Source: Octopus sinensis
Lineage: Eukaryota
Assembly (NCBI RefSeq): GCF_006345805.1
Contig: NC_043002.1
Coordinates: 50,654,001-50,718,000, forward strand
DNA length: 64,000 nt
Direction: 5' to 3'
Below, piece after piece: positions 18,762-27,182 of this stretch (position 1 is the first letter of the stretch; every line of letters starts with the position of its first letter). The notes under the pieces are model-generated. The model worked only from the letters and a program-made list of their open reading frames with translations, was not told the DNA's origin and made no database searches. The position numbers were made by a program, and so were the translations under genes.

Positions 18762-18799
18762 GCGCAGGAGTGGCTGTATGGTAAGTAGCTTTGATAACC
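18762..18799 (+). mobile_element. SINE family A 5' head, interrupted by an insertion
   Basis: GCGCAGGAGTGGCTGTATGGTAAGTAGCTTTGATAACC matches 443-479, then homology stops abruptly. Confidence 0.85.
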
Positions 18800-20844
18800 T
18801 TCGTCTGAGTTAGACGTGTTATTTTGCTGCTCCGGATGCCACGTTGTTTCAACGTGAATTGTTGAACTCTCGACTCGACTGCAGGTAGGCGTTTTGTATT
18901 TTTGCGAGCGAAGTGAAGTTTTATTACTTGCATTAATGTTTTTTAGCATTAAATATTTTTTTAGCAGATACTAAGGCTCCACTTTGCTCCGGATATAATT
19001 TTTCTGCCTGTTGTCGAGTGTAAAGAAAATTGTGTTTTTGAGGCGGCGTAGTCCGTCTGCAAAAATTATTTTTGAAATTGTCGTTGTGTTATCTACGGGA
19101 TTTACCAAGGATTATTTTACCAAGGTGTTTTACCAACAGTGTATTTGGCCTGGAATACAATTTTTGGCCGAAAAATGGAACAAAAAAAAAAGAAAATTAA
19201 TTCCTTTGTCTGAATTTGAACTCTCTTTCTCCGTCTATCATTCATTTGTAAAAAAAAAAGAACTTTTTTTGAACTGCCATTTTAATTTTATTTCTTCCCT
19301 TCTGTTGCTTTTTTCATTCTCCTTTCTGTGTCTAATTTATTTTGTAACATTTTGAACTGTTTTTCTTATGTTATGGCAAGGAATTTCACTGTGTGGGAAT
19401 TGACACCTCCCAAAAAGTACTTAAAGGAGCTCGAGGACAAAACCGTGGTGTTGAGGACATATTCGAGGTCGCTCGACACCATAATGGTTTTCCCGAAAGC
19501 CACCATTATGAACGAGCTGGCAGACTATATGCCAGCCGTTAAACACATTCAACGGGGAGCCAAATACGCAACGATTTGGTTGCTGTTTGACTCCCCTAAA
19601 GCAGCTTGCGATTTCGCGAGTAAGCCCATTGAGGGCGAAAAGATTCTGTTTCTCCCAAGCTATAAGGGGGAAAAATTGATACGATTATGGGTCTGCGGCC
19701 TGCCGCCCGGCTGTGAGCCCGAGTGGGTGGAAGATTTCATCCGCCGGGGTCTGAGTGGTGGTAGCGCCAAGATCCTGAACGTGAGAATGCAGCCTGCGGC
19801 TGACTGGGAAGGGGCAAAGGCTACTTTGACTCTGTGGACCCAGTCGGCCAAGAGTCTGGTTTTGCCGGACTTCTTGAAGATGGCCGGGTCCAAGTATCCG
19901 GTGATGCTTGAGGGACGCCCCCCAAGTGTCACCTGTGTTCGGAGACCGGCCACATTAAGAAAAACTGCCACAGGAACCAGAGTAGGATCCTGGAGAAGTT
20001 AATATCAGAGCCTCTCCCTGCCCCACCAATGGAGGGAGAGAAACAAAGTGAGGAGGGGGAAAAATCCTCCTCCAAAAGAAAAAGAAAAGTGGGGAGCAAT
20101 GGCGATCCACCAAAGGAACCGGAGGCTGCGGAAGAAAAAGAGGACCCGGTGCGTATAGCACCGGAACCCCAACCTCCCGAGGCCCAGCGTAAAAAGAAAA
20201 AGAAAAAGAGGAACGGGACGCCACCAGCGGACTGTAACACCCAGACGGCGTCTCCCATGTGTCCTCCGGCGGTTGTGATGCCGGAGAAATTTTATGTAGT
20301 CCTCTTCCATAAAGGAGGCACTGTAGGAAACGAAATAGGTAAGATGAGGAAGAGAAACCAATGGGAGGGACTTCGGTCCTGCATGGAGTATCCCGAGTGG
20401 CCTTCGCAGCTGGCTGCGGAGGTCCTACTCGAAAATGATATGTGCAGGATCGAGAATTCTTTCCCGGAGGATCTCTTGCAAGTCATACCTGTATGCGGAA
20501 GCCTGACGATGGACGATTGCGTCATTAAAGCAAGAGAGTTCATCGGTCGGGTAACGTAAAATTGCAATTGTGTTACATTGTGACAGAGGTTTATTGCCTC
20601 TGAAGAGACTTTTAAAAGTGTAAATTGTAAATTGAAATTTTTGTGAAAATTTTTTTAATTTTTGTAATTTTTGAAATTTTGTAAGTTATTGAAAAAAAAA
20701 CATTGTTTTAGAGAAGCAAAAGTCGGCGGGCGCTTTCTGACTTCTCCCATCACCATCTTCATCAACCACCACCATCATCCATTAATGTCCTTGTCCAGCC
20801 CGTAGCTACTCTGCGTGCTGCCCTAGTGGCAAATTATTAAAATA
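18800..20844 (+). mobile_element. ORF1(gag)-only non-autonomous L1/Tx1-like retroelement (half-LINE), apparently full length, 17-bp TSD
   Basis: TSD AAGTAGCTTTGATAACC (18783-18799) / AAGTAGCTTTGCTTACC (20845-20861). ~570-nt 5' UTR beginning TTCGTCTGAGTTAGACGTG, a single ORF with a zinc knuckle, and a ~285-nt 3' UTR ending at AATAAA; no RT. Confidence 0.75.
19373..20559 (+). CDS. LINE ORF1p/gag-like nucleic-acid-binding protein (~395 aa if one frameshift is corrected)
   Basis: ORF 19328-20002 (ATG at 19373) joins ORF 20029-20559 if one C is added in the C6 run at ~19918-19923, giving EGRPPK-CHLCSETGHIKKNC (CX2CX4HX4C). Basic NLS-like tracts KRKRK and RKKKKKKR. Confidence 0.75.
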
Positions 20845-20861
20845 AAGTAGCTTTGCTTACC

Positions 20862-21800
20862 TCACTGACAGAAGAGTTCGCATTTTACATGCAGCTTGAA
20901 AGTCACGTCGCAAGACGTGAAAATTGAACACTTTGGAAGCACGACTCCAGGTAGGCATTTGTTGTATTTTTTGAGGGCTTAGTGGAGTTTGTTGCCCTGT
21001 ATTGAATATATTTTGGCGAGCAACGGTCTCCACTCTACTCCAGACATTTGCCTGCTTGTGATCGTCCATAAAGACTCACTTTGCAGTGAAAATTGTGTTT
21101 TTAAGGAGGTGTAGCCCCTCCGCAAAAATTAATTTGTTTACAAAAATTGTCTTCGTGTCTGTGGATTTCCACTGGAGTACCAAGGGGTACCAAGGCAGGA
21201 GGGACTGTTTTTGCAAGGTGGACGTGAGTGAGTTGGCTCTGTCCAATATTGAACAGAAAGAAAAAAGAACAACACCAGCATAAGACCGTAGAGGTAGGTG
21301 GATTTGTTTTCGGTTGAGCTGGGTGTAATTTGTCAAATAGTAATTGTTTGTGTGTTGATAAATTTTGCCCAGCTCCGTGGCAATTCTGCCTGCTGTCGGG
21401 GGCTGCTGTTTGTTGGTTTTTGTATTGGAAAAAAAAGTGGGAGCGTATCTTCGCCCGAACTTACTGGATTTTGCCATTGAAACTTGTTGAAGTTGGCCAG
21501 GAGTACCTGTTGGCCATTGATGTTTGTTATGTGAACTGTTTTTCTTTTTTCTATCCTTCTGTTTTTTTCTTTCTTTTTGGAGCTGTTTTTGCGTTTCTTT
21601 TGAATTTTATTTTTTATTCATATTTTTTTAACTGACTTGTTTATTTCTTTTTGGACTTGTTAATTCATTTGGACTTTCCTTCTTCTTTTGAATTGATTTT
21701 TAACATGGCAAATGCAAAAAGTGCCTTAGAATGGGAAGTGGTCCCACCTAAGCAATGGAGTGAAAGCCTTGAGAGAAGGGCGGTGGTACTACGGACCTAT
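20862..21800 (+). mobile_element. second, diverged copy of the ORF1 retroelement family: 5' UTR and first ~32 codons, truncated
   Basis: 5' UTR shares ACGTGAA.., CGACT.CAGGTAGGC..TTGTATTTTT, AAAATTGTGTTTTT.AGG.GG.GTAG and GCAAAAATTA with 18800-19370. ATG at 21706 gives MANAKSALEWEVVPPKQWSESLERRAVVLRTY versus MARNFTVWELTPPKKYLKELEDKTVVLRTY. Confidence 0.8.
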
Positions 21801-22007
21801 AAATCTCTGAACGAGGTATAAACAGTAGCTACACGACATTGAGAAGTATATTTGCCACCTAAATGTAGCTAACCTTTAAGAGTTGATGCTACTGTAACTT
21901 GAAGCCCCAGGAGGACTTCTCCTCCAGCTGGCAATTGACACACTTTCTGTGCTCTCTCAGTATTCGCAATGAGAAATCATCTTTCCCATCTCCAGGCTGA
22001 CGTGATA

Positions 22008-22052
22008 CACACGGAGCCGAGTTTCTGGGTATTGACCCGTCATCAGCGTGTG
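22008..22052 (-). ncRNA. hammerhead ribozyme motif (left arm)
   Basis: Reverse complement CACACG-CTGATGA-CGGGT CAAT ACCCA-GAAA-CTCGGC-TC-CGTGTG; perfect stem I, weakened stem III. Confidence 0.6.
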
Positions 22053-22170
22053 ACGACCACCGATTGGCGATGGGAAGAGGTTCTCAATGCAAATATATAT
22101 ATCCTTGTTTTTCGAGATCAGTGACTTTGCGTCACTGGAAAAAGGATATATATATATATATATAATATAT

Positions 22171-22201
<31 letters not shown>

Positions 22202-22241
22202 TTGCATTGAGAAACACTTCCCATCGCCAACCGGTAGTCGT

Positions 22242-22286
22242 CACATGCTGATGACGGGTCAATACCCAGAAACTCGGCTCCGTGTG
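22242..22286 (+). ncRNA. hammerhead ribozyme motif (right arm)
   Basis: CACATG-CTGATGA-CGGGT CAAT ACCCA-GAAA-CTCGGC-TC-CGTGTG. Confidence 0.6.
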
Positions 22287-22599
22287 TATCACGTCAGCCT
22301 GGAGATGGGAAAGATGATTTCCCTTTTCAAATACTGATAGGGCAAAGAAGTGTGTCAATAGCCAGCTGGAGGAGATTTCTTCCTGGGGCTACAAGCTACA
22401 GTAGCATCCACCCTTAAGTATTAGCCACATTTAGGTGGCAAGTATACTTCCCGATGTCATGCAGCTACCGTTTATACCTCGTTCAGAGATGTATTATTGC
22501 TTTTATATAGAGTTTATAGGGTATTTGAGGACATACCTTTTTTGGGTCATTGATGCATCCTTTGCTAACTCTGTGTAGTCTTTGCTTCAAAAAATAATA

Positions 22600-24740: not shown

Positions 24741-24870
24741 ACGGGCTTCTTTCAGATTCTGCCTGCCAAATCCACTCACAAGGCTTTGGTTGGTCCGTTG
24801 TGTCATGCAGTAGAATAAGACCAAAACCATGCCGTTGGGGGGCAAGATTCTTATCACACAACCACGCCTG
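24741..24870 (-). mobile_element. SINE family A 5' part
   Basis: CAAATCCACTCACAAGGCTTTGGT..CACACAACCACGCCTG is the reverse complement of the family head. Confidence 0.65.
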
Positions 24871-25570: not shown

Positions 25571-27182
25571 TTGCGTCGGAAATTAATTAGCACTTCTCAA
25601 ATTTCTACATTTTCTTACATTTTCTTAATTTAATTAACTTATTATCAGAAACGAACTCGTTTATAATCAAAAATGTATTAAAACATATCCCAGCACACCA
25701 CATAATTGTTATTAATCGTGAAATTTAGTCAATATATTGTTGCTCCTCCTTTGGCAGCAATGACAGCTGCTACGCGGGTCGGCATGCTGTCTATGAGTGC
25801 CTGCAGGTACTGTGCAGGGATGGCCCCCCATGCAGCAAGAAGTGCCCCAAACAGCTTGTGTCGGTTCCTGTATTGCTGCACATTCAAATCCCTACCCAAT
25901 CGACTCCAGAGGTTCTCAATAGGGTTCAGGTCAGGTGACATACTCCTCGCCACCAAAGAGGTATCCCGTACTATCTCAACGTACTTTGCTGCGTTGATGT
26001 TGCCTTTGACGGCATAGAGCCGCCCAACACCGCTGTAGCTGAACGCCCCTCACACCATCAGACCACCCCCACCATGCTTCATGGTGAGAGCAATGCAGTC
26101 TTTGTTGAAGCGCTCACCCCTGCGGCCTCGCACATGGACAGGCTTGTCACTGACGAGACTGAATCGCGACTCGTCAGTGAACATCACTGTCCACCACTGC
26201 TGCACGGTCCATATCTTGTGGGCACGGGCCCAGAGCAGCCGCCTCTTCCAGTTTTGGGCTGTAATGAGCGGCTTATGGGCGGCCCTACAGGATTTTAGAC
26301 CAGCTTCCAGTAATCTGGTCTTGACGGTGGTTGTAGACAACTGCTTCCCTGTCATCTTTTGCATCTCCTCCGCCAGTTGCTGGCTCGTTGCCCTTCGGTT
26401 GTACAGCGACTTTCGGATCAGCATCCGGTCCTCCCGCTGGGTCGTCAGCCTCTTCCGTCCCCTACCCTTTTTGTCAGCTGCTGATCCGGTTTCATCGTAT
26501 TTCTTAAATAAGCACTGAATTGTGCGCCTGGCTACACCAAGTTTTCTGGCTATTGCAGCCTCCGACAGCTTCCCACGCCACGAGAGAGCCTCGTACCGTC
26601 TCTCCAAGGTCATGCGAGGTCTTGGGCCCATCTAGGAATGAACGATAAAAACCAGTTATTTTCATTAAAACTATTCATTTGAATAATGTTATGCTATAAC
26701 AAAACTGCTATGAGTTATTATTCATTAAACAAAAAAGAAAGAAAGCAGAATTTCTCACCTTATTTGATGTATAACAGAAAGTTTTGTGAACCAGAAGTGA
26801 CGTCATCAAGCAGAGTGTAGGAGAATTTGCGAGGAAAAAAATCTTGCAAATACACAAATCAATTAACCTACGAGCTGTTCAAAACGTCTTACGCGATGAG
26901 AAAACTTAGTACGGTGTGATTTCGGTCCTTGCGAGGCGCTACCTATATCTATTAAACAAAGGAAGATTTGTCTGCATCCGCACTCCAAGTTGTTGTTGCA
27001 CTGCTATGTCAACATCATTAGGCTGTAGACTCTCAAACTGCTCTGCAAACAAAGTTACGTCATCGTTCTGCGCAACAGTGAACTCACAACAAAGCAATAG
27101 TTCGAGATATGGCCACTAGGTGACAGCAAATACCTTGAGTGAAGAGAAAATCAAGGGTGCTAATTAATTTCTGACGGTAGTG
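25568..27182 (-). mobile_element. Tc1-like transposon, full-length ends, inactive
   Basis: 26-bp TIRs CACTTGCGTCGGAAATTAATTAGCAC / reverse complement CACTACCGTCAGAAATTAATTAGCAC (3 mismatches); TA on both sides within (TA)n. Confidence 0.92.
25729..26631 (-). pseudogene. Tc1 transposase pseudogene
   Basis: HTH, GRGRKR, FTDESRF, KHGGGGLMV then TGA in place of W at 26050-26052. Continues in frame as GAFSYSGVG..SPDLNPIENLW, but the second catalytic D segment (QQDNA..WP) is deleted. Confidence 0.9.

Follow-up and report, generated by a model that had tools for sequence, protein, structure and literature searches.

In a 64,000-nucleotide stretch of the Octopus sinensis genome (contig NC_043002.1, positions 50,654,001 to 50,718,000; hereafter the window), the head of a tRNA-related short interspersed element (SINE) is interrupted by a retroelement of about 2 kb that encodes only open reading frame 1 (ORF1). 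Here, we report that this unit (element 1, Table 1) represents a family of ORF1-only elements residing at one and the same base of the SINE head, for whose insertion a 5.4-5.5-kb long interspersed element (LINE) of the L1/Tx1 type likely supplies, in trans, both endonuclease and reverse transcriptase (RT). We assign this reading a probability of roughly 0.8.

Insertion at a single base of the SINE head

The 3′-ends of the element 1 family were collected with a query made of element 1's terminal 207 bp, in which the shared AA is the only target sequence; 30 of the 40 listed matches, the window among them, were fetched and thus chosen by element sequence only. In all 30 cases the 3′-end is directly followed by GTAGCT, which continues into the rest of the SINE in 22 copies and into another element in eight. 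At the opposite terminus, 27 of 30 fetched 5′-ends lie behind a SINE head, two behind the tail of another element plus the motif, and one behind a different tail. This strong enrichment of SINE-head junctions at both ends bears out the strict targeting of one base proposed in a first-pass annotation of the window and excludes random flanks. Moreover, 400 exact junctions between element tail and SINE are present genome-wide, against 0 in the reversed-pattern control, which argues that the insertions are not due to chance. Exact intact heads number 48,177, of which 24,185 are A-type. An older variant of the SINE contributes 83 exact junctions and 3,085 exact heads, and wherever an examined tail lacked GTAGCT, the host copy was of this SINE's older GAAG variant. 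Two further pattern counts, 176 and 145, derive from different patterns and yield no ratio.

The SINE head aligns to the tRNA-Lys(TTT) and Thr genes of this genome (z 5.4-5.6 versus shuffles), while Rfam and ARAGORN, for either of which it is too diverged, found no RNA gene. Its sequence identifies the target as a probable tRNA-derived SINE head with A and B boxes. Insertion occurs between the A-box and B-box regions and, as it splits one box from the other, would silence the SINE copies that are hit. A genuine tRNA gene was considered as a possible ancestral target; at the corresponding position, the insertion core was absent from all 27 distinct tRNA sequences inspected, which represent 30 loci and 9 anticodon classes only.

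Both A- and T-type SINEs receive insertions. A preference for one subtype through RNA-DNA pairing was hinted at by a pattern-picked LINE sample (13 A-type to 1 T-type) and is unsupported by unbiased samples of the LINE (16 to 11) and of the element 1 family (15 to 7), with exact heads at about 50 to 50. T-type SINEs host 13 of 14 clearly truncated copies and A-type SINEs 38 of 54 full-length ones, a skew for which age or the exact-pattern sampling may be responsible.

An old lineage that retains ORF1 only

Next to the target, the junctions differ in what lies upstream. In a census of 98 of 100 listed junctions (400 genome-wide; 97 stretches fetched), 52 had ORF1 followed by the tail, 23 had the terminal part of an ORF2, and the other 23 gave no ORF match. 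Units with both ends recur as discrete entities of 1.9-2.45 kb devoid of ORF2, and ORF1 of unbroken natural copies comprises about 395 (393-397) amino acids. The half-LINE nature suggested by the first-pass annotation therefore holds.

Pfam recognizes only the CCHC knuckle in ORF1 (zf-CCHC in 24 of 24 members) and returned no match to Transposase_22. A structure model predicted from 24 natural sequences (predicted local distance difference test score 81) places two domains resembling RNA recognition motifs (RRMs) ahead of the CCHC knuckle, with tandem-RRM matches by Foldseek (E 1e-4; VIA Z 7-9). In addition, the Atlas leads point to RNA-binding domains of the ZCCHC3 type (0.90), and a profile comparison with a fish element gave a weak probability of 25%. 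The predicted RRM-RRM-CCHC order corresponds to a Type I ORF1, a class linked with Tx1 (PMC5203782).

In a quick tree of 73 ORF1 rows, 61 form a clade (Shimodaira-Hasegawa-like approximate likelihood ratio 100) apart from the LINE ORF1s. All rows of this clade with the downstream tail in view are half-type, including L080, labelled 'auto', a half element into which another sequence has inserted. One further half element falls outside the clade, nearer to the LINE's ORF1. Across 15 representatives (105 pairs), the ratio of nonsynonymous to synonymous substitutions is about 0.2 (medians 0.12-0.33 by divergence bin, highest value 0.79), with synonymous sites near saturation. This combination argues for a lineage that is old and has retained its ORF1, rather than for a fresh deletion product, and its sequences show it to be long-lived and, by this measure, under purifying selection. 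Derivation from the present LINE by simple deletion was ruled out, as DNA similarity is confined to the termini and the ORF1 proteins are 26% identical.

The sole named relative of ORF1 is an Octopus sinensis annotation (59% identity). Gene model LOC115225585 (P0002) of this species is placed inside the clade of ORF1-only proteins and probably represents an element mistaken for a host gene. Pieces of the family are present in contigs of four runs (labelled organisms A-D), in which starts, ends and strand are not readable. One subfamily carries a tandem repeat of about 200 bp in its 5′-untranslated region (5′-UTR; L045, L046, L047, L051-L053, L056, L057, L059, L060), which recalls the promoter monomers of rodent L1. 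Furthermore, the first 10-20 bases behind the leader differ among many half-element families and then converge on GACGTG or GCGCATG, suggesting repeated swapping of 5′-ends.

An autonomous LINE at the same base

The first-pass annotation had predicted an autonomous partner, and a 5.4-5.5-kb LINE indeed occupies the same base. Among the copies examined, eleven measure 5,403-5,493 bp and two are internally shortened; a second LINE family was encountered at L098. ORF1 is followed by an ORF2 comprising an apurinic/apyrimidinic-type endonuclease (APE), an RT and a C-terminal zf-RVT domain, without RNase H. Pfam, run on two natural pieces of L087 separately, returned Exo_endo_phos (3e-12), RVT_1 (2e-27) and zf-RVT (1e-8). 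The best relative of solved structure is human L1 ORF2p (1e-54), with R2 at 1e-18, and a search for longer ORF2 homologues yielded distant matches only. The nearest database relatives include an Argonauta protein (60% identical) and a two-ORF element of fish with ZCCHC3-type ORF1 domains (30%). By sequence, the LINE is assigned to the L1 superfamily and likely to its Tx1 subclade.

For its target, 30 of the 40 copies listed by the LINE's own 3′-end were examined. All 30 meet the target motif, 27 in a SINE, two in a stacked element and one in non-SINE DNA. The latter copy (L206) lies in DNA that repeats the core AAGTAGCTTTG, hinting that about 9-11 bp are enough for recognition. Set against the published threshold for target preference of more than 20% of flanks (PMC4494074), 29 of 30 flanks are SINE head or stacked leader and one is a look-alike core. 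The DNA common to the LINE and the short elements consists of the 3′-terminal motif and, for the family of element 2, the first 16 bases. An A-tract behind AATAAA was found in 0 of 60 unbiased ends of the LINE and the element 1 family.

A related element at L051 (1-1500) encodes an ORF1 35% identical to that of the LINE and has a different tail ending in GGGTAATAAAGAAAT. It lies immediately upstream of a half element, with the usual motif missing between them, and is possibly a sister family with another target.

Head-to-tail stacking

With the window left out, 7 of 29 copies of the element 1 family are followed by another element, compared with an occupancy of 0.9% of exact sites (p 8e-9; p 5e-4 if 5% occupancy is assumed); for the LINE the count is 2 of 30 (p 0.03). 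The largest array, on C7 (C7:10449500-10469000; L161, L162), contains at least eight units of mixed families and ends in a LINE-type ORF1; unit identity declines from 96 to 82%, so that apparent age increases from the head side. Other arrays comprise three or four units. The head-to-tail arrangement expected from the first-pass annotation is hence a recurrent one. A more diverged LINE, with ORF2 at about 60%, is located upstream of the C7 array.

The younger unit lies upstream in the window and apparently downstream in some other stacks, which indicates that both regenerated sites are used. Candidate reasons for favouring occupied sites are open chromatin at the element promoter, local re-insertion and template jumping. 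As an alternative to repeated insertion, a stack could be made in one event, either by serial template jumping, with the finished cDNA, whose end resembles the original primer, priming on the next RNA, or by read-through transduction. This explanation concerns the stacking step only, may act alongside repeated insertion and predicts an identical junction sequence; moreover, it would fit the large excess of stacking over site occupancy and the two about equally young units at L180. However, neighbours often differ in apparent age, as in the window (97.7% versus 93% identity to the closest copy) and along the C7 array, and we therefore regard it as rather unlikely.

A probable target-mimicking leader at the 5′-end

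The window shows the layout initially described: a SINE head, the 17-mer AAGTAGCTTTGATAACC, an element of about 2,045 bp and the 17-mer again, here AAGTAGCTTTGCTTACC. According to a script run on the window sequence, the two differ by two mismatches and are separated by 2,045 bp (18800-20844). Both share an extra T (GCTTTG) that occurs in 0 of 5 other SINE heads of the window, from which a true target site duplication (TSD) had been concluded. The latter conclusion did not survive comparison with other loci. Among 54 single full-length insertions, the linker connecting GTAGCT with CTWAC is non-canonical upstream in 22 (TTG 8, T 5, TGT 4, CG 3, TT 1, CC 1) and downstream in 0, a comparison weakened by the fact that most of these downstream copies were chosen by exact pattern. 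The unbiased repeat with 16 insertions chosen by element sequence nevertheless gave 10 of 16 upstream versus 0 of 16 downstream (p 2.5e-4), and intact heads carry a variant in only 2 of 29 cases versus the 22 of 54 upstream copies (p 9e-4). The extra T, a missing G and other linker variants thus recur upstream at unrelated insertions with a canonical downstream copy. Since both junctions in the window are leaders of full-length elements and the subfamily of element 1 carries the T at three other loci (L124, L008, L137), the shared T is not evidence of a single duplication.

Moreover, four families each show a single A/T base in the upstream copy (7/7, 15/15, 10/10 and 13/13), and it remains that of the family in 10 of 10 targets carrying the other base. 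Clearly 5′-truncated copies (n = 14), in contrast to full-length ones, are flanked by plain duplications that match for 14-15 nucleotides after AA in six and for 5-10 nucleotides in eight, corresponding to duplication lengths of up to 16-17 bp (6/14) and 7-12 bp (8/14), respectively. The simplest reading of these sequences is that in full-length copies about 9 bp are duplicated target, while the next 7-8 bases would be the element's own leader. Hence, true duplication extends to as much as 16-17 bp in truncated copies, whereas in full-length insertions the 3′-half of the 17-mer moves together with the element. Because older families carry the motif of the older SINE variant on both sides, the leader appears to have tracked the SINE through at least three variants.

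The first-pass view, in which the targeting is the same, the full-length copies have an ordinary TSD, and differences between the two sides stem from later mutation or gene conversion, would be consistent with the exact matches in the six truncated copies, with the identity of upstream and downstream copies in 26 of 54 full-length insertions and with runs of a single variant in arrays. It does not account for the recurrence of the same variants upstream only at unrelated loci or for an A/T base that follows the family in all ten discordant cases, and we consider it improbable.

Independent insertion versus co-mobilization

Given that almost all copies lie within the SINE at the same base, a SINE hit once could in principle have been copied whole, with the element as cargo, by the SINE's own partner LINE. 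Yet 13 LINE copies are mutually 98.0% alike while their SINE bodies are 94.0% alike, without correlation between the two (rho -0.19, p 0.10), and truncation points, families and SINE subtypes vary between loci. As the SINE bodies are more diverged than the inserts, co-mobilization was rejected. The many families, the differing orders of the mixed stacks, the use of both SINE subtypes and the LINE copy at L206, which shares the 9-bp core in non-SINE DNA, likewise speak against cargo, an explanation that is largely refuted and very improbable.

Proposed mechanism

In the reading that we prefer, the APE of the LINE would nick the bottom strand at AA|GTAGCTT, where the RNA 3′-end (AATAAA, probably with a few read-through target bases) would prime. 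The top strand would be cut up to about 15 nucleotides downstream. If the RNA 5′-end starts inside the upstream target copy, a full-length cDNA would end in the target mimic (G)CTWAC, which could pair with the latter half of the duplicated sequence and take its place, the joint being subject to small slips. A usable site would be left on either side of each insertion, permitting later elements to stack. We infer these RNA-level steps (starts, ends and priming) from the DNA sequence.

Several points weigh against this reading. The likely mobilization in trans is deduced from the shared site and the 3′-motif only, as the LINE and the short elements are without DNA similarity elsewhere. An unbroken ORF2 was found in none of the LINE copies examined, the longest comprising 1,002 amino acids. 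Two arrays contain different families with the same linker variant in runs, which fits plain site duplication, and leader replacement is therefore not the only mode. On a weakly resolved tree of 13 LINE copies the linker variants are not grouped; inheritance of the variants was rejected on this ground, and they may arise anew at each joint. Finally, relative ages are nearest-neighbour identities within limited samples, and the quick ORF1 tree comes with a long-branch warning.

Comparison with known systems

As far as the accessible parts of the literature cited here go, LINEs of the Tx1 clade with fixed targets include Tx1 of Xenopus in Tx1D, Tx1-Mar in Mariner-N4_AMi, Keno in U2, Kibi/Koshi, Dewa and Mutsu (PMC4494074, PMC3706591). 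The targets described there are RNA genes, microsatellites, DNA transposons and long terminal repeat elements, and no SINEs are listed (PMC4494074, PMC3706591). The octopus LINE resembles them in its APE and RT, in the Type I ORF1 and in a fixed place in a multicopy sequence, mobile elements included; a non-autonomous rider on the same target is likewise known from this clade, namely SINEU (PMC4494074, PMC3706591). In the octopus, by contrast, insertion is into a tRNA-related SINE of which at least 48,000 exact copies exist; the LINE's riders code for a protein (ORF1 only) and are more numerous than the LINE itself, and long mixed stacks occur.

The octopus units exhibit the features of a HAL1-type half-LINE, i.e., a discrete ORF1-only unit whose ORF1 is kept while the family spreads. 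HAL1 proper has a Type II ORF1 and a poly(A) tail. Unlike HAL1, which stems from mammalian L1, the octopus elements display an RRM-RRM-CCHC ORF1, no poly(A) tract and site-specific insertion, and they do not belong to HAL1 itself. HAL1, the half-L1 of mammals, is non-autonomous, encodes ORF1p only and arose more than once (PMC5753468); similarly, ORF1 without ORF2 is found here in a second half lineage nearer to the LINE's ORF1.

In Drosophila, HeT-A and other ORF1-only telomeric elements, about 40% of families, rely on ORF2 supplied in trans and occur in head-to-tail arrays together with autonomous partners, and ORF1-only lineages beget further ORF1-only families (bioRxiv 10.1101/2025.06.09.658640). 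The octopus elements share the ORF1-only lineages and the mixed arrays with an autonomous partner, with ORF2 presumably likewise provided in trans. They are unlike HeT-A, a Jockey-clade element of chromosome ends, in having an L1-like partner and in occupying a dispersed repeat at interstitial loci on many contigs. The wider notion of an interstitial counterpart of the fly telomere stands at about even odds: a Tx1-type LINE and an old ORF1-only guild would exploit the SINE as a renewable landing strip by means of a site-rebuilding leader updated with the SINE subfamily, and would be drawn to, or polymerize on, occupied sites to give chains of at least eight mixed units.

For R2Bm and R1Bm, it has been proposed that, when a full-length copy inserts, target-derived bases at the RNA 5′-end anneal to the target DNA upstream; downstream target bases assist precise priming (PMC6895275, PMC7265360). 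The leader reading parallels the proposal of target sequence on the R2Bm RNA (PMC6895275). R2, however, employs a restriction-like endonuclease, and its RNA is transcribed together with rRNA and processed by a ribozyme, whereas the octopus LINE is an APE element whose mimic, as seen in DNA, apparently replaces one half of a staggered duplication.

Thirteen recently active L1-Tx1 families are reported for Octopus vulgaris, their targets not being given in the available text (PMC13282606). In the literature searched, neither a LINE with a SINE head as its target nor ORF1-only Tx1 elements in cephalopods were found to be reported; Repbase, Dfam and papers outside this search may already name the families. 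The targeted system itself is strongly supported. Its novelty lies in bringing together a SINE target, an ORF1-only guild that is old and dominant, a leader that probably mimics the target, and long stacks, habits known separately from frog Tx1, mammalian half-L1 and fly telomere elements.

The system offers hundreds of dated insertions at one base, in which one can study why ORF1-only elements thrive under targeted, stacked insertion, a success so far argued from fly telomeres. It also lets one ask by what means APE-type LINEs close their 5′-junctions, and how an endonuclease with sequence specificity keeps up with a target that is itself an evolving mobile element. For targeted-insertion tools, too, a compact, sequence-specific APE LINE is of interest. 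As regards annotation, such ORF1s get called host genes, as with P0002, and stacks are easily mistaken for segmental duplications.

The window locus

Table 1. Parts of the stacked insertion (positions in the window).
Feature	Position	Strand	Remarks
SINE head, 5′ part (A-box side), upstream of the insertion	18762..18784	+	tRNA-related; tRNA-Lys(TTT)/Thr alignment
Upstream target-like 17-mer AAGTAGCTTTGATAACC	18783..18799	+	about 9 bp target + linker + about 7-8 nt of presumed element leader
Element 1, full-length ORF1-only non-LTR retroelement	18800..20846	+	closest copy 97.7% identical
ORF1 of element 1	19373..20559	+	two predicted RRMs, low-complexity middle, one CCHC knuckle, C-terminal domain
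3′-terminal motif ..GCC..TGGCAAA..T(G/A)AAATAAA	20787..20846	+	outline common to the autonomous LINE and all ORF1-only families
Junction 17-mer AAGTAGCTTTGCTTACC between elements 1 and 2	20845..20861	+	presumed old upstream junction of element 2 and target of element 1
Element 2, older ORF1-only family: 5′-UTR and first 32 codons (ATG 21705)	20862..21798	+	closest copy 93%
MITE-like long inverted repeat with TA ends, cuts off element 2	21799..22494	.	696 bp

Element 1 has a 5′-UTR of 575 bp, a single frame break in ORF1 near 19920-19925 and a 3′-UTR ending in AAATAAA with no A-tract behind it. As described in the first-pass annotation, a second element with a recognizable 5′-UTR and ORF1 start follows directly; the two are nevertheless different families of one ORF1-only lineage and not one family inserted twice. 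Their 5′-UTRs have only short patches in common (80-85% over about 48 bp), and the ORF1 starts are 50% identical over 30 amino acids. With separate dispersed families and such short patches, a local segmental duplication or chance nesting as the origin of the tandem is practically excluded.

A whole unit of the element 2 family measures 2,247 bp elsewhere (stretch L182). In the window, neither the remainder of element 2 nor a SINE body was found beyond 21799, where a near-perfect palindrome with a central (TA)n resembles a miniature inverted-repeat transposable element (MITE), with relatives at L127, L071 and L171. Downstream DNA without the missing part suggests a MITE-linked deletion. Judging from the identities to the nearest copies, element 1 is apparently the younger of the two and most likely entered element 2's upstream junction; the MITE would have cut element 2 later.

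Apart from this locus, the window contains five uninterrupted heads of the same SINE, at 453 and 14618 (+) and at 24863, 41268 and 45695 (-), four of which are of the older GAAG variant. Broken transposase frames with a helix-turn-helix start and a DESRF motif, which we take to be Tc1/mariner-like, are located at 25706-26631 (-).

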